Assembly (NCBI GenBank): GCA_020425605.1
Contig: JAGQRH010000007.1
Span: forward strand, 76,834 to 140,833
DNA: 64,000 bases
Direction of reading: 5' to 3'
Origin: Planctomycetota bacterium
GTDB taxonomy: Bacteria; Planctomycetota; UBA8742; UBA2392
Part shown: piece by piece, positions 51,634 to 61,176 of the stretch
Layout: the number at the start of each line of letters is the position of its first letter
Numbering within the stretch: position 1 is the first letter of the stretch
The notes under the pieces: generated by a model
The model's database searches: none
What the model saw: the letters and a program-made list of their open reading frames with translations, nothing else
Told to the model about the DNA's origin: nothing
Program-made: the position numbers and the translations under genes

Positions 51634-51669
51634 GACGCCCGGCAGATGCCGGGCGTCTTTCATTTTCCG
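51634..51669. terminator. bidirectional Rho-independent terminator between convergent genes
   Basis: GACGCCCGGC-AGAT-GCCGGGCGTC (10-bp stem) followed by TTTCATTTT. It lies between the stop at 51614 (+) and the stop at 51674 (-). Confidence 0.85.
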
Positions 51670-52380: not shown

Positions 52381-53118
52381 CTAACTGGCAGCGGATTGAG
52401 ACTTGGCGCGGTCCACCAGACCACCGAAGCGACGTTCGCGCCCGTTGTAGTCCTGGATGGCGGCCTGAAGATGCACTTCCCGGAAATCGGGCCAAAGCGT
52501 CTCGGTCACGTACAACTCGGCGTAGCTGATCTGCCAGAGCAGGAAGTTGCTGAGGCGCATTTCGCCGGCCGTGCGGATTACGAGGTCCGGGTCGGGCATA
52601 TTGGGCTGGTACAGCTCAGCGGCAATTGCGGCTTCGTCAATCTGATCCGGCTTCAGCTCACCTGCCTGTACTTTCTCGGCCAACACACGCATGGCATCTG
52701 ACAGTTCTGCTCGACCGCCGTAGCTGAGGGCAAGGCACAACAGTGTGCCCTTATTGCCGGCTGTCAGCTGAATGGTCTTGTCCAGTTCTTTGCGCACGTC
52801 CTTCGGCAGGCGATCAATACGCCCGATTGCCCCGAAACGCATGTCGTTGCGCATCAGGGTCTCGCGCTCTTTGACCAGAAAGCGCTTCAGCATGCGCATC
52901 AGGAACTCGATCTCGAGTCTGGGGCGGCGCCAGTTTTCTTCGGAAAACGCGTAAAGGGTCAGTTGCTCGACGCCAAGCCGGGCGCATTCCTCACTGATCG
53001 CGCGGACACTGTCGATCCCCGCCTCATGCCCCTTCACACGCCGCATGCCACGGGCCTCGGCCCAGCGGCCGTTGCCGTCCATGATGATGGCGATGTGTCT
53101 GGGGCACGCAGCGGTCAT
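52381..53118 (-). CDS. uppS: di-trans,poly-cis-undecaprenyl-diphosphate synthase
   Basis: 245 aa. PRHIAIIMDGNGRWA, LTLYAFSEENWRRP, IRTAGEMRLSNFLLWQ and AELYVT..LWPDF. Confidence 0.95.
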   Translation of the reverse strand: MTAACPRHIAIIMDGNGRWAEARGMRRVKGHEAGIDSVRAISEECARLGVEQLTLYAFSEENWRRPRLEIEFLMRMLKRFLVKERETLMRNDMRFGAIGRIDRLPKDVRKELDKTIQLTAGNKGTLLCLALSYGGRAELSDAMRVLAEKVQAGELKPDQIDEAAIAAELYQPNMPDPDLVIRTAGEMRLSNFLLWQISYAELYVTETLWPDFREVHLQAAIQDYNGRERRFGGLVDRAKSQSAAS

Positions 53119-53212: not shown

Positions 53213-53722
53213 TCACAGCAGCTTCTTCAGGCTGACCGAGCGCGGCTCGTAGCCCAGCTTGTCGTACAGACCCGCAGCATCCGCGTTGTGTGCCATCACC
53301 TGCAAGCCGAGGCGCTTGAACCCGGCATCCTGAAGGAATTGCACAGCTGTCGCGTGAAGCGCCTTGGCGACTCCGCGTCCCCGGAATTCCGGATAGACCG
53401 AAAGGTCGAAGATCCAGGGGTCGACGCGTCGAGTGAAGAAATCCGTCTGCTGGCCCAGCCAGCAGTGGCCGGCGTACTTCTCGTCGAACTCCGCCACAAA
53501 GACGGTGTTCTTGCGCGGATCGTGTGGAGCGAAGTGGCGCAGCAACCAGGCGTGGTGTTGCTTAAACTCAGCCTCGTCGACGAATTCGTCCTGCGGAATC
53601 GAGTCCCGGAACGTGGCGAAGTTCAATGCAGCGAACTTGCGCTGGTCGCGCAGATGGTCATAGCGGCGTATTCGGATACCCCCCATAGGACCCCAATCTA
53701 CCGGCGGTACGAATGGCAGCAA
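53213..53722 (-). CDS. GNAT-family N-acetyltransferase
   Basis: 169 aa. An alternative start is ATG 53686 (MGGIRIRRYD). The acetyl-CoA motif is VYPEFRGRGVAKAL, followed by GLQVMAHNADAAGLYDKLGY. Confidence 0.8.
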   Translation of the reverse strand: MLPFVPPVDWGPMGGIRIRRYDHLRDQRKFAALNFATFRDSIPQDEFVDEAEFKQHHAWLLRHFAPHDPRKNTVFVAEFDEKYAGHCWLGQQTDFFTRRVDPWIFDLSVYPEFRGRGVAKALHATAVQFLQDAGFKRLGLQVMAHNADAAGLYDKLGYEPRSVSLKKLL

Positions 53723-53729
53723 CTGGCGC

Positions 53730-55166
53730 CTAGCTGGCAGGCGGTCGGCTTGCGGGAGTCAGCGGGAACCAGACGGTGAAGCAGGTGCTTCCGGGCTCGG
53801 ACTCGACCTTGATGTCTCCGCCGTGCTGAACGGTCACGATGCGGTGCACGATATCGAGCCCAATGCCGGTACCCTCCCCCATGGGCTTGGTCGTGAAGAA
53901 CGGCTCAAAAATCCGGCTGACAACGTCTTTGGGTATGCCGGAGCCGGTATCGCAGATCCGCGCGCAGACGCAGCCGCCATCCTTGCCGGTCTTGATGGTC
54001 AGCGTGCCGCCCTCCTCCATGGCATCGACCGCGTTGTCGATCAAGTTGGTCCAGACCTGGTTCAATTCGCCGGGATAGGCCGGAACCAAAGGCATCTGTT
54101 CATCGTATTCGCGCTTCACGCGGATGGCCTTCCTGCGAAGCTTATGGGCGAGAATCGTCAGGGTACTCTCAATGCCCTCGCGGATGTCCATCGGCTGCTT
54201 GTCCGGATTGTTGTCCATGTGGGAATGGACCTTGATCGATTGGACCAGGTGCGATATCCGCTCGGCCGCCGAGATAATCTCCTCGACCATGCGCTGCATG
54301 CCGGCGCTGCCCTCAATCCAGCGAATGCCGAGCGGAAGAGCGCCCTTGATGTGGCCGACAGACTTCGCGAGTTCCTCGAGCTCGACTACGGTGGCACCCA
54401 TATCGGCGAGGTTTTCCGCCAGCACCCAGGGCTCCGGCACGTCGTGCGCCTCCAGCCAATCCGATATCTCGTCTTCTCGCTCCCCGCGTTCCACGGTCGT
54501 CAAGTCTTGGGGCTTCCTGGCAAGCAGGCTGTCACGAAACTTCGCCGCTGCCATGATGTCTTCGGCCGACACGTTGAGAGTCATCAGTGTCGAGCCGATC
54601 TGCAGCATTCCTGCAAGCCGGTCTTGCAGTGACTGTGCTGACCGCTTCAGCGCGCTCGCAGGGTTATTCAGTTCATGCGCCAGACCGGCGGCCATCTTGC
54701 CCAGCGCCGACATTTTCTCCCGGTGGTCTATGAACTGCGTGCTGCGCCGAACGCGATCGGACATGATCGACACCAGCCTCTGACCGAGGACGGGAATCTC
54801 GTGCAGCATCTCATGGAAGTGGTCCTTGTGAATCTGAAGTCCCACCGAATCGGTAATCGCCCTGGCTTCGCCGGTGTTCTTCGTAGCCCGTGAAAACGGC
54901 AGCATCCCGCCGACGGCACCCCGGCGCGCCTCGTTGAATACGGTGTTCTGCCCGCCCACCCCGAACTTCCATTGAAACGAGCCCGTCAGCAGGATGTACA
55001 TGTGGTCTGCGGGGTCGGCCGGGCGCGCGATGATCTCGTCCGCTGCGACTTCCATGCGCTCACTGTGCTTGCGAATCCAGTCGAGCTGCTTGTCGGTCAG
55101 GCCCTCGAACAATTCGAGCTGTCCAAGCACGTCGCTGGAAACGTCCGTTCCCGGTGTAATGCGCAT
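53730..55166 (-). CDS. sensor histidine kinase with an N-terminal cyclic-nucleotide-binding (cNMP/CAP-like) domain
   Basis: ORF 53730-55298 (-). The start is set at ATG 55166 (MRITPG...), 1 nt after the stop of the upstream gene. cNMP-like segment LELFEGLTDKQLDWI....E.....DEII.....PADHMYILLTGS. H-box MAAGLAHELNNP, N-box NLIDNAVDAM, G-box GTGIGLDIV. No TM segment. Confidence 0.85.
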   Translation of the reverse strand: MRITPGTDVSSDVLGQLELFEGLTDKQLDWIRKHSERMEVAADEIIARPADPADHMYILLTGSFQWKFGVGGQNTVFNEARRGAVGGMLPFSRATKNTGEARAITDSVGLQIHKDHFHEMLHEIPVLGQRLVSIMSDRVRRSTQFIDHREKMSALGKMAAGLAHELNNPASALKRSAQSLQDRLAGMLQIGSTLMTLNVSAEDIMAAAKFRDSLLARKPQDLTTVERGEREDEISDWLEAHDVPEPWVLAENLADMGATVVELEELAKSVGHIKGALPLGIRWIEGSAGMQRMVEEIISAAERISHLVQSIKVHSHMDNNPDKQPMDIREGIESTLTILAHKLRRKAIRVKREYDEQMPLVPAYPGELNQVWTNLIDNAVDAMEEGGTLTIKTGKDGGCVCARICDTGSGIPKDVVSRIFEPFFTTKPMGEGTGIGLDIVHRIVTVQHGGDIKVESEPGSTCFTVWFPLTPASRPPAS

Positions 55167-55167
55167 G

Positions 55168-56826
55168 CTAGAGCTCCGCGAGGTGACGGTGGATGAATGC
55201 AACGGAAACCGAGCCTTCGCCGACAGCTGAGGCGACGCGCTTGATCGACTCACTGCGCACGTCGCCCGCCGCGAACACGCCGGGCACGCTGCACTCAAGC
55301 AGGAACGGGTCGCGCTTCAGCGGCCACTGTTTCAGTTGCTCCGCGCTGAGCGACGGCCCCGTAAGAATGAACCCGCGCTTGTCACGCGCGACGCAATCGC
55401 TCAGCCATGCCGTTCCCGGCTCGGCTCCGATGAAAATGAAGACGTAGCTTGTGTCCACCTTCATGGTTTCGGCGTTGCGTCGGTTGCGGAGGGTCAGGGC
55501 CTCCAGGCCCTCTTCCCCGTGGCACTCGGCGATTTCGGTCTGCGTGAGAATCTCGATCTTCGGATGGGCTTCGAGCCTCTCGACAAGGTAATTCGACATC
55601 TTGGTGGCGAGCGAGTCGCCGCGCACAAGCACCGTGACCTTTCCCGCGTGCTCGGCAAAGAACATCGCAGCCTGACCGGCGGAATTGCCTGCGCCAACGA
55701 TATAGACCTGCTTGTCAGTGCAGCCCATCGCCTCGGTCATCGCGGCGCCGTAGAACAGGCCGCGCCCCGCGAGCCGCTCCGCACCCGGTGCAGGAAGCTG
55801 CTTCCAGGTCACACCCATAGACAGCATCAGGGCATGGCAGGCGACCTGCTTGCCGCTCTTTAGCGTGAGGCGTTTGTAGGGACCGTCCACGGCCATTGAG
55901 GCGACTTCGGCCGGGGCCAGGATCTCGACGCCGAAGCGCGTCGCCTGGGTAACGGCACGCCGGGCAAGGTCAGCGCCCGTGAGTCCCGACGGGAAGCCCA
56001 GATAGTTCTCGATCAGACTGCTGGTACCGGCTTGCCCACCGGGCGCCTGCCGCTCGATCAACACCGTCTTGAGGCCTTCGGATGCGCCATATACGGCCGC
56101 CGCCAGACCAGCCGGGCCGGCGCCTACGATGGCGAGGTCGTAGAATTCAGCCTTGGCCTCAGTGCGCATGCCGATCTCGGCTGCGAGCGAATCGGTGGTC
56201 GGGGCCTGGAGGCGCTTCCCGCCCGGCAGCAGCACGATAGGCAGGCGATCGCGCGCAGAACCGGAGTCTGGCCCCAGCACTGCCCGAGCCTCTTCAGAGG
56301 CTTCAATGTCCATGAACTGGTACGGGATCTGGTTGCGGGCGAGGAATTCCTTTACGTCGTGGGTTTGCGCGGACCAGCGATGCCCCACCACGCGCAGCCC
56401 GCCATAGCCGGGCCTGTAGCCTGCCCGCCAGTCCTCAAGGAGATCATCAGCCACCGGATACAGCCGCTCTTCAGGAGGGTCCCAGGGCTTCAGCAGGTAG
56501 TAGTCAATCTGGGACTCGTTGATGCTGGCAATGGCTGCATTCGTATCGGCATACGCAGTAAGGAGGGCGCGCTTGCTTCCGGGGTAGAGCCTGCGTGCCT
56601 CGGCGAGGAACTCCGTGCCGTCCATCTTGGGCATGCGCTGGTCCGACAGGATCAGCGCCACTGGCTCGCCGCGCTCGCGCAGCTCAACCAGGGCATCGAC
56701 TCCCTCGCGGCCTGAGGATGCCCGCAGGACGCGATAATCCTCGCCGTATCGCTTTCGCATGTCACGAGCGATGGCGCGCAGCACCTCGGGTTCATCGTCT
56801 ACAACTAGAATTGCCGGCTTGGCCAC
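55168..56826 (-). CDS. response-regulator receiver fused to a thioredoxin-reductase-like FAD/NAD(P)H flavoprotein domain (redox CxxC absent)
   Basis: 552 aa. REC domain: ILVVDDEPEVL...ALILSDQRMPKMDG...LLTAYAD...YLLKPW. A Grx-like linker follows (HDVKEFLARNQIPYQFMDIE...LPIVLLPGG). FAD motif DLAIVGAGPAGLAAAVY, second dinucleotide fold VYIVGAGNSAGQAAMF, and GVFAAGDVR. Confidence 0.85.
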   Translation of the reverse strand: MAKPAILVVDDEPEVLRAIARDMRKRYGEDYRVLRASSGREGVDALVELRERGEPVALILSDQRMPKMDGTEFLAEARRLYPGSKRALLTAYADTNAAIASINESQIDYYLLKPWDPPEERLYPVADDLLEDWRAGYRPGYGGLRVVGHRWSAQTHDVKEFLARNQIPYQFMDIEASEEARAVLGPDSGSARDRLPIVLLPGGKRLQAPTTDSLAAEIGMRTEAKAEFYDLAIVGAGPAGLAAAVYGASEGLKTVLIERQAPGGQAGTSSLIENYLGFPSGLTGADLARRAVTQATRFGVEILAPAEVASMAVDGPYKRLTLKSGKQVACHALMLSMGVTWKQLPAPGAERLAGRGLFYGAAMTEAMGCTDKQVYIVGAGNSAGQAAMFFAEHAGKVTVLVRGDSLATKMSNYLVERLEAHPKIEILTQTEIAECHGEEGLEALTLRNRRNAETMKVDTSYVFIFIGAEPGTAWLSDCVARDKRGFILTGPSLSAEQLKQWPLKRDPFLLECSVPGVFAAGDVRSESIKRVASAVGEGSVSVAFIHRHLAEL

Positions 56827-56883: not shown

Positions 56884-56922
56884 CAACAAGAACGCCCTGA
56901 GCAGCGCTCAGGGCGTTCTTGT

Positions 56923-56924
<2 letters not shown>
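56884..56924 (-). terminator. long perfect hairpin immediately 3' of tRNA-Ala (terminator-like)
   Basis: On the + strand, GCAACAAGAACGCCCTGAGC-AGC-GCTCAGGGCGTTCTTGTTG forms a stem of up to ~19 bp that reaches into the tRNA CCA end. There is no clean U-tract beyond the stem. Confidence 0.5.
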
Positions 56925-56998
<74 letters not shown>

Positions 56999-57100: not shown

Positions 57101-58237
57101 ATGCGGCGCTTTGCCCCCTATCTGCTTTTGATTGCTGCGGCCGTGGTCGTCAGCGTGCTACTGCCGGCCCCTGACCGAACCGTTCAGGCCGATGCAGGCG
57201 AGGTAGCCCGCACCACCGGCATACGAGTGCTCGGCGCGACTCGCGGCTACGCTACCACCGCGCTCTGGTTGAGGGCAGGAGATGCGTACCAACGCGGTGA
57301 CCTGTATGAGACCCTTGCCACCTACCGACTGATCAGTGAGCTGCAGCCCCGCAACCCGGCCGTGTATAGCTACCTTGCCTGGAACCAGGCCTACAACATC
57401 TCGGCCCAGTTTCCGGAACACGACCGGCGCTCCTACTGGGTAGTTCTGGGCCTCCAGACGCTGATTGACGGCCAGAAGCGTCTGCCCGACGACGCCTCGC
57501 TGCGACTGGACGAGTGGAACTTCTTGCTGAACCGAACGATCAGCTACCCGGCTGCGGTGCTTGAGGCAGAGCGCAATCACCTCGGCGAAGTGGACAGCAC
57601 ATGGAACCAAGTGGTTGGCGTCGCGCTAAAGCTGCGCAAGGACCTAAATGGCAAGGACGTCGCGGCACTGGACGATTTTCTCGAGAACATTGGCTTGCAG
57701 ATTGGTCTGTTCGACACGGCCGATGACGTGGCGGCCCTGTCAGCATCTGACCGGGACCGGCTCCTGGCCCCGGCGTTTGAGGAGCAGACGCCGGAACAGC
57801 AGGGCGAGCTGGGTCAGGCCTTTACCGTCCTTGAGCGCGACCAGATGCGCGCCCTGTTTTCGCTGACGCCGGATGTGCTTGCATTTCTTGCGGTCGCGCA
57901 CTGGTGCCGCCTGCACGCAATGGTGCTTGCGATCACGCCCGCACTGGATGCCCAACCGCACGGGTTGGCCGTCGAATCAGCCTTGTTGAACGCTGTTCGG
58001 CTGGCCAGTTTGCGGATTCCACCGACACTGGCCCATGAGACCCGGCAAGAAATCGAACGCCGTTATAAGGAAGCAGTTGCACATGCGTTCGTCTCGGGTA
58101 TAGAGAACGCCCTTCGGATCGGCGGGCGGGAAGCCGCCGACGATTTTGTGGACGCAATGAAGTTCAACTTTGAGGGCCAGCCCGAATTACTGCCCCCCGA
58201 AGTGATCGAAAAGGCGCAGCAGGAGATTCACGAATGA
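57101..58237 (+). CDS. membrane-anchored hypothetical protein (378 aa), possibly TPR-like helical
   Basis: N-terminal TM/signal anchor FAPYLLLIAAAVVVSVLL. Helical-repeat-like LWLRAGDAYQRGDLYETLATYRLISELQPRNPAVYSYLAWNQAYN. The stop overlaps the hppA start (ATGA). Confidence 0.55.
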   Translation: MRRFAPYLLLIAAAVVVSVLLPAPDRTVQADAGEVARTTGIRVLGATRGYATTALWLRAGDAYQRGDLYETLATYRLISELQPRNPAVYSYLAWNQAYNISAQFPEHDRRSYWVVLGLQTLIDGQKRLPDDASLRLDEWNFLLNRTISYPAAVLEAERNHLGEVDSTWNQVVGVALKLRKDLNGKDVAALDDFLENIGLQIGLFDTADDVAALSASDRDRLLAPAFEEQTPEQQGELGQAFTVLERDQMRALFSLTPDVLAFLAVAHWCRLHAMVLAITPALDAQPHGLAVESALLNAVRLASLRIPPTLAHETRQEIERRYKEAVAHAFVSGIENALRIGGREAADDFVDAMKFNFEGQPELLPPEVIEKAQQEIHE

Positions 58238-61176
58238 TCGTTTCCCTCCGCGGCAGGACCCATTCCGTTTCGCCCCGCAAACTGCTGACGGCAGCAGGAT
58301 TTGTGCTGGCGGGACTTCTGCTTGCCGTAACGGCCATGACTCACGACGGCGGCCCGGCTGCCTTCTTCAACCTTGGCCCGGCGCTTGATCACGTGGCGCA
58401 TGCGGTCGGGCTCGAGACTTCCGCGACGCCGGTGCAGATCGCCACCGCACGCGACGGCATCGTCAATACCGGTGATGAAGTGTGGAAGGGCACCACCAAG
58501 GGCGAGACAACATTCTGGCAGAACTGGTACTACGGCGTATTCGCCGTCCTGCTGGGTCTGATTGGCTCGGCGGCGGCATTGGTTACCGCCCGCAAATTCT
58601 TCGGCGACGTCAAGAAGGCCGCGCCGGGCAACGAGCGCATGATCGAGATTTCTGATGCCGTCCGCGACGGCGCAATGGCCTACCTGGTGCGCCAGCGGCG
58701 AATCGTTCTGCCGGTGCTAGGCGGCGTGGCCATCATCATCATGGCGATCAATTTCTTCGGCGCGGTACCGTACCTCGCGATTTTCGCGCTGGTCGGATTG
58801 TTCACCGGCGGTCTGTGCAGTTTCGCCACCGGCTGGTTCGGAATGCGCACGGCAACAATGGCCAGCAACCGCACGGCCTGGGCCTGCAAAGAAGGCGGGC
58901 TGAATGCCGGTCTGCAGGTCGCGTTCAAGGCCGGCGCGGTAATGGGCCTCATGGTGGTGGGCGTCGGCATGGCGTTCATCACGTTCTGGCTGCTGGTGAT
59001 GGCCGGCATCGTGGATGCGATCGACACGAAGATCACGCTGAATGAGATCGCCAACATCATGATCACATTCGGACTCGGCGCCTCGCTCGTTGCGCTGTTC
59101 GCGCGTGTTGGCGGCGGTATCTTCACCAAGGCCGCGGACGTCGGCGCAGACCTGGTGGGCAAAGTTGAAGCCGGCATCCCGGAAGACGACCCGCGCAACC
59201 CGGCCACGATCGCTGACAACGTCGGCGACAACGTCGGCGACGTCGCAGGCATGGGTGCCGACCTTTACGAGTCCTATGTCGGATCGATTCTGGCGGCCAT
59301 CGCGCTGTCCTGGTCCGCGGCTGTAAGCCTCGGCAAGAACCCCTGGGGCTTTGTCTTTGCGGCTGTCGGCATTGCTGCAATCGGCATCCTGCTGTCTGTT
59401 GGATGCACCAAACTGGTGAAGACGAAGGATGGGGCGACTCTCCACGAGCTGCTGGCCGCGCTGCACAAGGGCGTCAATGTCGCATCGCTGGGAGTCGGCG
59501 TGTTGGCACTGCCGATCTGCTGGCTTGGCTTTGGATTCATCCTCGGTACTTCCATGTGGGCTGCGGTGGCCGTTGGCCTTACCGCTGGTCTCGTCATCGC
59601 CTGGGGCTCAGAGCGCTTTACTGCCTATGACTACGAACCCACTCAGAGCGTCGCAAAGCAGTCCGTGACCGGCCCGGCAACCGTCATCATCGGCGGTCTT
59701 GCGGTCGGCATGATGTCGACCTGGATCCCGATTGCCACGGTTGCCATTGCGACACTTCTGGCTTTCGGCTTCGGCGGCGGGTTCGCAAGCATGCCCGCAG
59801 GCCTTTACGCCGTGGCGCTCGCTGCTGTCGGCATGCTCAGCACGCTGGGCATCACGCTTGCAACGGACGCATACGGCCCGATCGCGGACAACGCGGGCGG
59901 CAATGCCGAAATGGCCGGCCTGCCGCCGGAAGTTCGTGAGCGCACGGACGCGCTGGACAGCCTCGGCAACACGACGGCCGCGATTGGCAAGGGTTTCGCG
60001 ATTGGCTCAGCAGCGCTGACCGCGCTGGCGCTGATTGCTTCCTACCAGGATTCGCTGATTGGGCTGCTGCGCTCGGGTGAAGACAAAGTCGCCAACGCAC
60101 AGGGCCTTCGCATGCTGATGGAAAGCATGAGTGTCTCGGCACCTCAGGTGATCATCGGCCTGTTCATCGGCGCCATGCTCGTGTTCGTGTTCGGCGCGTT
60201 GACCATGAGCGCTGTAGGCGATGCGGCCAAGGAAATGGTCGAAGAGGTTCGCCGCCAGTTCCGTGAAATCCCCGGCATCATGGAAGGCACGGGCAAACCG
60301 GACTACGCAAGCTGTGTGGACATCTCCACTACAGCAGCTCTCAAGCGCATGCTTGTGCCGTCGCTCCTTGCAGTGGCCGGCCCCATCGTTACCGGCGTGC
60401 TTTTCGGTGCCGGCGCCGTGTTTGGTCTGCTCGCGGGTGGTCTGGCTGCGGGCTTTGCAATGGCCGTAATGATGGCCAACGCGGGCGGCGCATGGGACAA
60501 CGCCAAGAAGTGGGTCGAAAAGGGCGGGCTTGCCGAGAAGTTCATTGAAGAGGGCATATACAACCCCGAGGTCGAAGATGCGGCGCTTGCTGCAATCGAC
60601 GGCGACCAGGGCGGCCCCGACGGCAAGAAAGACACGAAGAAAAAGTCCAGCAGCAAGAAGAAGTCGGCGGCCAGCAAGAAGAAGGGCACCAGCTCGCGCA
60701 AGACGAAAGCGACTGCCAAGCCTGCGGAGCCGGCTGAGATGGCCGACGCCGACGCGGACGCAACCGAAGACAACGAAGAGGCTTCGGCTGAAGAGCCGAC
60801 GCCCGGCAAGGCAGAGGATCAGACTGCTGACAGTCCGAAAGAAGCCGCACAAGAAGAAGCCAGGGAAGAAGCCAAGGCTGAGCCTGCCGCGCCGGTTGCT
60901 GCTGCCAAGCAGGAAGTGCCCGCTGCAGCGCCAGCCGCACCCACCGAGCCGGCGAAGAAGAAGTACAGAAAATACGTCAAGGGCTCGCCGGAGCATAAGG
61001 CAACGGTCGTGGGCGATACCGTGGGTGACCCGTTCAAGGACACGTCCGGCCCCTCGCTGAACATTCTCGTGAAGCTCATGAGCATGGTTGCGGTCGCTAC
61101 CGTCGCGCTGGTTCTGGCCGTCAACAAGGGCGGAGGCCTTCTGCCCTGGCTGTTCGAGTGGATCTATACCAAGTAA
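58234..61176 (+). CDS. hppA: membrane-bound ion-translocating pyrophosphatase (M-PPase, HppA family), with an N-terminal extension and a ~150-aa low-complexity insertion in the last cytoplasmic loop
   Basis: 980 aa. M-PPase motifs GGIFTKAADVGADLVGKVEAGIPEDDPRNPATIADNVGDNVGDVAGMGADLYESY, DAYGPIADNAGG, GNTTAAIGKGFAIGSAAL, NAGGAWDNAKKW and VGDTVGDPFKDTSGPSLNILVKLM. The insertion lies at ~60529-60978. Confidence 0.92.
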   Translation: MIVSLRGRTHSVSPRKLLTAAGFVLAGLLLAVTAMTHDGGPAAFFNLGPALDHVAHAVGLETSATPVQIATARDGIVNTGDEVWKGTTKGETTFWQNWYYGVFAVLLGLIGSAAALVTARKFFGDVKKAAPGNERMIEISDAVRDGAMAYLVRQRRIVLPVLGGVAIIIMAINFFGAVPYLAIFALVGLFTGGLCSFATGWFGMRTATMASNRTAWACKEGGLNAGLQVAFKAGAVMGLMVVGVGMAFITFWLLVMAGIVDAIDTKITLNEIANIMITFGLGASLVALFARVGGGIFTKAADVGADLVGKVEAGIPEDDPRNPATIADNVGDNVGDVAGMGADLYESYVGSILAAIALSWSAAVSLGKNPWGFVFAAVGIAAIGILLSVGCTKLVKTKDGATLHELLAALHKGVNVASLGVGVLALPICWLGFGFILGTSMWAAVAVGLTAGLVIAWGSERFTAYDYEPTQSVAKQSVTGPATVIIGGLAVGMMSTWIPIATVAIATLLAFGFGGGFASMPAGLYAVALAAVGMLSTLGITLATDAYGPIADNAGGNAEMAGLPPEVRERTDALDSLGNTTAAIGKGFAIGSAALTALALIASYQDSLIGLLRSGEDKVANAQGLRMLMESMSVSAPQVIIGLFIGAMLVFVFGALTMSAVGDAAKEMVEEVRRQFREIPGIMEGTGKPDYASCVDISTTAALKRMLVPSLLAVAGPIVTGVLFGAGAVFGLLAGGLAAGFAMAVMMANAGGAWDNAKKWVEKGGLAEKFIEEGIYNPEVEDAALAAIDGDQGGPDGKKDTKKKSSSKKKSAASKKKGTSSRKTKATAKPAEPAEMADADADATEDNEEASAEEPTPGKAEDQTADSPKEAAQEEAREEAKAEPAAPVAAAKQEVPAAAPAAPTEPAKKKYRKYVKGSPEHKATVVGDTVGDPFKDTSGPSLNILVKLMSMVAVATVALVLAVNKGGGLLPWLFEWIYTK

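Follow-up and report, generated by a model that had tools for sequence, protein, structure and literature searches.

Response regulators in which a receiver domain is joined to a thioredoxin reductase (TrxR)-like domain have been listed in censuses as the TrxB type, the regulator gene being followed by that of a kinase (PMC9739842, PMC5847659). In Streptomyces coelicolor, SCO7297/SCO7298 are recorded as a classic kinase and a 'TrxB'-type regulator, with no function given (PMC9739842), and both sulfane sulfur (PMC9952706) and acid shock (PMC2631018) induce SCO7298 ('trxB3'). The present analysis concerns a gene pair of this type in a 64,000-nucleotide stretch of a Planctomycetota bacterium genome (contig JAGQRH010000007.1), referred to below as the window. 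The pair encodes a soluble histidine kinase and a regulator in which the receiver is followed by a glutaredoxin-like linker and by a TrxR-like module that binds, as its motifs suggest, flavin adenine dinucleotide (FAD) and reduced nicotinamide adenine dinucleotide with or without phosphate (NAD(P)H). The dithiol centres of both the linker and the module are lost throughout the family.

The census sources mention neither the glutaredoxin-like domain, nor the missing CxxC motif, nor the CAP-type sensor of the kinase. Related proteins carry a cyclic nucleotide monophosphate (cNMP)-binding domain in place of the receiver, and one of these, ATII-TrxR, a 552-amino acid (aa) cNMP plus TrxB protein that is 87% identical to a protein of Cupriavidus metallidurans, was reported to form a dimer that contains FAD, to oxidise both NADPH and NADH, and to reduce thioredoxin and DTNB (5,5'-dithiobis(2-nitrobenzoic acid)) (PMC6544261). 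Redox centres were proposed at Cys206-Cys223 and Cys376-Cys467, and a CxxC was not discussed (PMC6544261). A functional study of the receiver-fused family was not found in the searchable literature, which on these terms otherwise yielded the census mentions, the S. coelicolor expression data and ATII-TrxR only; in two reviews (PMC9025218, PMC8945050) and in PMC13683863 (2026), the terms appear only in unrelated contexts. The statement in the initial annotation of this DNA that such a pathway has not been characterised thus holds for the function of the receiver-fused family, but the architecture had already been catalogued and a cNMP-fused relative has a reported activity.

The regulator and kinase genes, like the genes downstream of them, lie on the minus strand (Table 1). 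The regulator stop codon (TAG at 55168-55170) is separated by a single base from the kinase ATG (junction CTC TAG C ATG CGC), as had been stated, and the two genes form a tightly coupled cognate pair. With its receiver fused to a TrxR-like module and a complete D-D-D-T-K set, the regulator fits the definition of a TrxB-type response regulator. The order of the two genes is also that of the TrxB-type loci, and those of Streptomyces encode regulators 53-54% identical to the one described here, with an adjacent kinase. No structural difference from this class, a catalogue entry without assigned function, was seen, and the pair is another member of a catalogued family and not a new kind of system.

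Orthologues of the regulator, 50-86% identical to it, occur in at least 8 phyla, with 50-65% identity across phyla. Relatives are present in at least 598 species genomes, a word-based search gave at least 8000 matches, and 3473 representatives (50% identity clustering) match the regulator at E <= 1e-30. Gene neighbourhoods were compared at 87 loci from Planctomycetota, Cyanobacteria, Acidobacteriota, Chloroflexota, Actinomycetota (including Streptomyces), Bacteroidota, Burkholderiales and Gemmatimonadota. A full-length kinase homologue, from sensor through catalytic domain, adjoins the regulator at 79 of these, and the 8 loci without an adjacent kinase are mostly on contigs that end near the regulator. 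The pairing noted in this single window thus recurs across phyla, and beyond the 87 loci the same pair was found on a Deinococcus plasmid. A third conserved gene was not revealed by unbiased clustering of the neighbouring open reading frames (ORFs) at the 87 loci, none other being present in more than 9 of them.

In the regulator, Pfam recognises Response_reg at residues 6-118 and Pyr_redox_2 at residues 229-538. The receiver residues Asp10, Asp11, Asp62, Thr90 and Lys113 are present, as checked at the codon level, and are kept in 71-72 of 73 orthologues. The protein has no membrane segment (maximum Kyte-Doolittle 19-residue mean 1.46), and the earlier view that it has no DNA-binding output is supported. 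Among the PDB chains, the C-terminal module is closest to TrxR (E = 1e-44, 26-31% identity), followed by AhpF (E = 7e-29), and TrxR-type ferredoxin/flavodoxin-NADP+ reductases match residues 226-470 only (E 1e-11 to 1e-13). TIGR03140 and TIGR03143 match residues 219-551 of the regulator, and the score of the module with TIGR01292 is 218.1 bits, under the cut-off of 343.45 bits.

The motifs quoted earlier for FAD (GAGPAGLAAAVY and GVFAAGDVR) and for NAD(P)H (VGAGNSAGQAA) are present. The elements GxGxxG, Glu258, GGQ and GxGxxA/G are invariant or nearly so in the orthologues, GAGPAG, GAGNSAG and G-D522 are present and invariant, and Tyr359, Glu365, Arg402 and Asp522 are invariant in all 73. The HRRD of TrxR is replaced by VRGD, in which only Arg402 is retained.

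At the CxxC site, HMMER aligned YCAVC-DG of Staphylococcus aureus TrxR to YGAAMTEA, and an ungapped count back from GxGxxG yields A-A-M-T; there is a cysteine in neither reading. None of the 73 orthologues, which are from genomes of many phyla, has a cysteine at positions 360-364, and a CxxC occurs anywhere in the regulator in only 5 of them. The loss of the motif, which the initial annotation had deduced by comparison with Escherichia coli TrxR, is thereby confirmed, and no second cysteine is conserved elsewhere in the protein. There is no CxxC, and reduction of thioredoxin by the classical dithiol relay would therefore be impossible.

A cysteine absent from the initial annotation, Cys369, lies 5 residues past the last position of the lost CxxC, in a helix predicted by AlphaFold2 (AF2) at residues 363-369. 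Of 120 close homologues, 119 retain it; among the 73 diverse orthologues it is present in 60 and replaced by Tyr in 8. Any claim that every redox cysteine has been lost is qualified by this near-invariant residue. The two other cysteines, Cys330 (52/73 orthologues) and Cys435 (7/73), do not appear to be reliable partners for it, and a Cys369-Cys435 disulfide was rejected, given the scarcity of Cys435. The position of Cys369 on the former CxxC helix and its presence in 82-99% of orthologues would suit a single catalytic thiol, as would the invariant Glu365, which aligns with the acid-catalyst position of TrxR, held by Asp139 in the E. coli enzyme.

The linker between receiver and module had been described as glutaredoxin-like and without a CxxC, and both parts of that description were upheld. 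In the AF2 model, residues 144-218 follow the order beta-alpha-beta-alpha-alpha-beta-beta-alpha, which is the glutaredoxin topology. A profile built from 21 receiver-fused, cNMP-fused and stand-alone members matched mycoredoxin-1 of Mycobacterium tuberculosis (Rv3198.1, PDB 2LQO) at E = 3.6e-10, with NrdH-like redoxins and glutaredoxins next; the Pfam Glutaredoxin match is weak (E = 0.0036). The pseudo-active site W151-S152-A-Q-T155 replaces the WCGYC of mycoredoxin, and the pattern in the orthologues is W-S-x-x-[ST], with Ser152 in 66 of 73 and cysteine at that position in none. The equivalent of the cis-Pro, Pro196, is found in 72 of 73. Thus, mycoredoxin-1 and NrdH-type glutaredoxins share with the linker the fold, the cis-Pro and the Trp that precedes the active site, but with WSAQT in place of WCGYC thiol chemistry would be impossible in the linker.

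The sequence as a whole suggests a fusion of a thioredoxin fold to TrxR, in the layout of AhpF and NADPH-dependent thioredoxin reductase C (NTRC), from which both dithiol centres are gone. AhpF and NTRC likewise have a thioredoxin-fold domain on one chain with a TrxR-like module; in contrast, the regulator lacks both redox-active disulfides and has an N-terminal receiver instead of a second thioredoxin fold. Low-Mr TrxB (TIGR01292, EC 1.8.1.9; PDB 4GCM, 5MH4 and 1F6M) shares the two-domain FAD/NAD(P)H fold and, apart from HRRD, its cofactor motifs, but the regulator differs from it in the absence of the CxxC, in VRGD for HRRD, in the sub-cut-off score and in the additional receiver and glutaredoxin-fold domains.

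The AF2 model of the regulator (47 sequences, mean predicted local distance difference test score (pLDDT) 82.6) was compared with known structures using Foldseek. It superimposed on TrxR in the flavin-reducing conformation with template modelling (TM) scores of 0.90-0.91 (5MH4, 3CTY) and on flavin-oxidising structures with a TM score of ~0.62, and full-length AhpF aligned to it over 531-536 columns.

The output had been likened to ferredoxin/flavodoxin-NADP+ reductases of the TrxR type (YumC and Chlorobaculum type; PDB 3LZW, 3AB1), and this was sustained only as far as the missing CxxC goes. These enzymes share the CxxC-less TrxR fold, but similarity of the regulator to them is weak and partial, and its sequence is far closer to TrxR and AhpF. 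In these reductases an aromatic residue that stacks on the FAD is carried by a C-terminal extension. The regulator has no such extension and ends at residue 552, right after the helix at 534-551 that corresponds to the last TrxR helix. Membership of this group was rejected on the latter ground and on the E values (~1e-13 against 1e-44 for TrxR).

The kinase contains, according to Pfam, a cNMP_binding domain at residues 38-122 (42.6 bits, cut-off 27.5), a partial HisKA match at 155-183 and HATPase_c at 367-470 (95 bits). It has no transmembrane segment, as originally noted (maximum Kyte-Doolittle 19-residue mean 0.94), and His164 and the N, G1, F and G2 boxes are invariant in 45 homologues. In the AF2 model (pLDDT 86), the sensor barrel leads into a long helix (residues 125-196) that carries His164, which is followed by an insert at 197-275, the second helix of the dimerisation and histidine phosphotransfer domain at 276-319 and the catalytic domain. 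The insert consists of four helices with conserved motifs, for example REDxxxDWLE, and gave no match in a Pfam scan. Foldseek with the kinase model returned kinase cores only, the catalytic domain aligning to that of ThkA with a TM score of 0.9, and nothing that points to a sensor ligand.

The input domain had been described as CAP/cNMP-like, and of this the CAP-family assignment stands but a canonical cNMP signature was not found. The strands of the model at residues 36-113 form the beta-barrel of the CAP effector fold. In the HMMER alignment to CRP of M. tuberculosis, Met88 takes the place of the Glu and Asn97 that of the Arg of the phosphate-binding cassette, which here reads G87-M-L89-P90-F-S92-R93. 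The motif L89-P90-[YF]-S92-R93 is invariant in the family (G-x-[LM]-L-P-[YF]-S-R in the wider form), with its Arg about 5 residues earlier than in the canonical cassette, and a loop is modelled at residues 88-95, where the cassette helix is expected. As judged from sequence and model, the sensor is a member of the CAP effector superfamily with a non-canonical phosphate-binding cassette. Cyclic AMP (cAMP) or cyclic GMP (cGMP) as its putative ligand is unproven and unsupported by the sequence.

The glutaredoxin-like and TrxR-like module is also found outside the receiver-fused family. In many proteins an N-terminal cNMP_binding domain replaces the receiver, and such forms bear the NCBI name 'cyclic nucleotide-binding domain-containing thioredoxin-disulfide reductase'. 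Representative P0125 has the order receiver-module-cNMP with a canonical cassette (GEMAVLQQAPRTASVRA), P0252 has C-terminal EF-hand pairs after the module, and P0132 has a SnoaL-like domain N-terminal to the receiver. All of these paralogous architectures lack the CxxC, and only some have an equivalent of Cys369. The association of CAP-type domains with the module recurs and is real irrespective of the ligand. BLAST identity between the kinase sensor and the module-fused cNMP domains was a generic 20-24%, so that nothing points to an ancestral protein having been split recently.

ATII-TrxR and the other cNMP-fused proteins have the same module, 43-47% identical over ~400 residues and also without a CxxC, but differ from the regulator in that the CAP-type domain is fused directly, with no kinase or receiver. 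The paralogue of C. metallidurans CH34, 43% identical to the module studied here, has YYWASPVEAKLC at the CxxC site and matches the 17- and 170-residue spacings of Cys206, Cys223 and Cys376. Cys376 of ATII-TrxR is most likely the equivalent of Cys369, membership of the family being indicated by the cysteine spacing and the closest named homologue. A stand-alone module of 423 aa, with no regulatory domain and likewise no CxxC, was also observed on a conjugative plasmid of Cupriavidus basilensis (L088:2944-4215), directly after a branched-chain amino-acid ATP-binding cassette (ABC) transporter operon.

The pair is read here as a self-contained two-component system with a non-transcriptional flavin output, in which phosphorylation would gate an NAD(P)H-dependent flavoenzyme that works without dithiol chemistry, and a probability of roughly 0.55 is assigned to this reading. 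The soluble kinase would sense a cytoplasmic ligand, not necessarily cAMP or cGMP, through its CAP-family beta-barrel, autophosphorylate at His164 and pass the phosphate to Asp62 of the regulator. The output module would be descended from a fusion of a mycoredoxin with a TrxR that kept FAD and NAD(P)H binding as WCGYC became WSAQT and CxxC became AAMT. Phosphorylation may shift the receiver and glutaredoxin-like domains around a TrxR-like dimer, and would thereby gate the passage of electrons from NAD(P)H through the flavin to an acceptor with which reduced FAD can react directly. Candidate acceptors are O2, a quinone, a metal chelate, a small redox protein or an activated disulfide. By analogy, the oxidation of NAD(P)H by ATII-TrxR would be a precedent for this activity of the module.

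Several points weigh against the gated flavoenzyme. No functional study of a receiver-fused member was found, no conserved neighbour indicates the electron acceptor, and the 50-65% identity across phyla would fit a non-catalytic sensor too. AF2 confidence is low in two highly conserved segments of the regulator, residues 266-282 and 524-532, which align with FAD-contacting motifs of TrxR; the low values may reflect only that the model is free of cofactor. Furthermore, the reduction of thioredoxin reported for ATII-TrxR (PMC6544261), if true, needs thiol chemistry outside the proposed model.

That the flavoprotein is instead a non-enzymatic adaptor, sensing NAD(P)H or redox state and acting through contacts with, for example, CPA2-RCK or zf-UBP proteins much as KefF acts on KefC, is doubtful. 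The loss of both redox cysteine centres and the unusually high conservation would suit such a role, as would the neighbouring genes. In some marine lineages, regulator and kinase are separated by a Kef-type CPA2-RCK transporter gene (Na_H_Exchanger-TrkA_N-TrkA_C) whose product has zf-UBP or a glutaredoxin domain at its C terminus, and a zf-UBP (PF02148) gene or domain stands beside the pair at 25 of 91 loci in several phyla. At 23 of the latter (L010, L012, L018, L031, L044 and 18 others) it is a small gene that immediately precedes the regulator or follows the kinase, and at L004 and L005 the CPA2 transporter has it as its C-terminal domain. However, a CPA2 gene is adjacent at only 3 of the 87 loci, the only CPA2-RCK homologue of the source genome is on another contig, and zf-UBP was not found in the assembly, which is 86% complete; CPA2-RCK was rejected as a general partner on the first two counts, and zf-UBP is a partial one. 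Also against an adaptor, the cofactor-binding and hydride-transfer motifs are all retained, and turnover of NAD(P)H has been reported for ATII-TrxR (PMC6544261).

Two of these neighbourhoods have features of their own. In the CPA2-RCK protein encoded between the pair in a member of the Rhodothermales (L002:7749-10115), the C-terminal domain is a glutaredoxin (Pfam E = 1.8e-6) and not zf-UBP as in other lineages. A metagenome genome (L005:1252-13612) has three paralogues of the module within 12 kb, two cNMP-fused and one receiver-fused, and the same stretch includes AhpC-like, ferritin-like, CPA2-RCK-zf-UBP, diadenylate-cyclase-domain and flavodoxin-like genes.

The route proposed in the initial annotation, in which cAMP or cGMP from the neighbouring class III cyclase acts on the cNMP domain of the kinase and so leads to phosphorylation of the flavoprotein, is unlikely. 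In its favour are the above-cut-off Pfam match of the kinase and the canonical cassette that P0125 carries on the same module. The cyclase has the motifs FTDLAGFS, KVEGD and DVYGSEVN; its two metal Asp residues are present, as are the Lys/Asp pair for the substrate and the Asn. Its gene has the same orientation as the pair and is 1.4 kb away from the kinase stop. From the start of the regulator to the stop of the cyclase, the only 2 terminator-like hairpins fall within the regulator coding sequence and none is intergenic. Given ~10 cyclase genes in the 4.2 Mb source genome, one within 1.4 kb is expected by chance in ~1% of cases, and the arrangement is retained in two close planctomycete relatives with regulators 77% and 86% identical to this one. 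These are, however, the only 2 of the 87 loci at which a cyclase adjoins the pair, and it is already missing from the locus of a relative with a 70%-identical regulator. In the window, kinase and cyclase are separated by a GNAT gene and by uppS, an essential housekeeping gene. The canonical Glu and Arg are absent from the kinase cassette, no cassette helix is modelled, the family motif is L-P-[YF]-S-R, and the transition-state Arg of the cyclase is replaced by Lys (VNVACK versus VNVAARL). The cyclase is a lineage-specific same-strand neighbour and not a conserved partner, and the idea that it supplies the ligand is not supported as a general feature.

That the protein is still a thiol-directed reductase, as the common annotation 'thioredoxin reductase' has it, with Cys369 serving as the one catalytic thiol towards a disulfide, persulfide, polysulfide or thioredoxin, is improbable. 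Such a role would agree with the DTNB and thioredoxin reduction reported for ATII-TrxR and the naming of Cys376 in its redox centre (PMC6544261) and with the induction of SCO7298 described above. Against it, 8 of 73 orthologues have Tyr in place of Cys369, which is also missing in many cNMP-fused paralogues, has no conserved second Cys, would be 5 residues beyond the flavin-proximal Cys of TrxR and thus too far for flavin contact unless the domain docks differently, and belongs to a module short of the TIGR01292 cut-off (218 versus 343 bits).

Returning to the phosphorylation-gated flavoenzyme, the pair might, as a tentative extension, represent a widespread device by which a ligand read by a divergent CAP domain switches NAD(P)H-driven electron flow through phosphorylation and not through gene expression, for instance in peroxide production or towards a quinone or metal acceptor, using a mycoredoxin-TrxR fusion re-purposed without dithiol chemistry. 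Nearly all studied response regulators act on DNA, cyclic di-GMP or motors; here the output is an FAD/NAD(P)H module. If the function were known, two-component signalling would be tied directly to cellular redox or NAD(P)H metabolism, and a very common mis-annotation would be corrected, many members being named 'Thioredoxin reductase (NADPH)' by the Joint Genome Institute (JGI). The pair is present in the genetically tractable S. coelicolor, Nostoc/Anabaena and Chitinophaga pinensis. The gain from this window is small, namely a further member of the family whose GNAT and cyclase neighbours are lineage-specific.

Table 1. Positions of the regulator-kinase pair, its domains and key residues, and neighbouring features in the window.
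Feature	Position	Strand	Basis or remark
tRNA-Ala(GGC)	56923-56998	-	Upstream of the regulator
Terminator-like hairpin after tRNA-Ala	56890..56909	-	Bounds the transcription block on its upstream side
Response regulator gene, 552 aa	55168..56826	-	ORF; GTG start at 56826; protein begins MAKPAILVVDDE
Receiver (REC) domain, aa 1-125	56452..56826	-	Pfam Response_reg
Putative phospho-acceptor Asp62 codon	56641-56643	-	In the receiver domain
Mycoredoxin/glutaredoxin-fold domain, aa 138-224	56155..56415	-	AF2 and profile match
TrxR-like FAD/NAD(P)H two-domain module, aa 226-552	55171..56151	-	TrxR chains in PDB, E = 1e-44
Former CxxC site, G360-A361-A362-M363-T364	55735..55749	-	Alignment to TrxR; invariant Glu365 is next
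Cys369 codon	55720..55722	-	C-terminal end of the former CxxC helix
Soluble histidine kinase gene, 478 aa	53730..55166	-	ORF; ATG at 55166
CAP-family (cNMP_binding) sensor domain, aa 14-125	54792..55127	-	Pfam and CRP alignment
Putative phospho-accepting His164, H-box AHELNNP	54675..54677	-	Codon checked
Four-helix insert in the dimerisation and histidine phosphotransfer (DHp) hairpin, aa 197-275	54342..54578	-	AF2, pLDDT mostly 88-97
Catalytic ATP-binding domain with N, G1, F and G2 boxes, aa 320-470	53757..54209	-	Pfam HATPase_c
GNAT acetyltransferase gene	53213..53722	-	Pfam Acetyltransf_1; likely start ATG 53686
uppS	52381-53118	-	Between the GNAT gene and the cyclase gene
Minimal class III nucleotidyl cyclase gene, 216 aa	51674..52324	-	Pfam Guanylate_cyc, 32.8 bits
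Terminator-like hairpin after the cyclase gene	51634..51657	-	10 base pairs, 9 of them G-C; next intergenic one on this strand after 56890..56909

The GNAT gene, which starts at most ~45 bases from the kinase stop, is a lineage-specific third gene of the operon. A GNAT gene lies immediately 3' of the kinase in 3 planctomycete relatives, the only ones of the 87 loci at which it is a neighbour, and in one of these (L007) it overlaps the kinase stop.

On the plus strand of the window, a 378-aa ORF without a Pfam match (57101-58237) has a stop codon that overlaps the ATG of a gene for a 980-aa H+-pyrophosphatase (58234-61176). The latter protein contains a low-complexity insert of ~150-170 aa, rich in Lys, Ala, Glu and Pro, just before the conserved GDTVGDPFKD motif. 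The same ORF/H+-pyrophosphatase pair was found in relatives, the pyrophosphatases being 975 and 968 aa in length.

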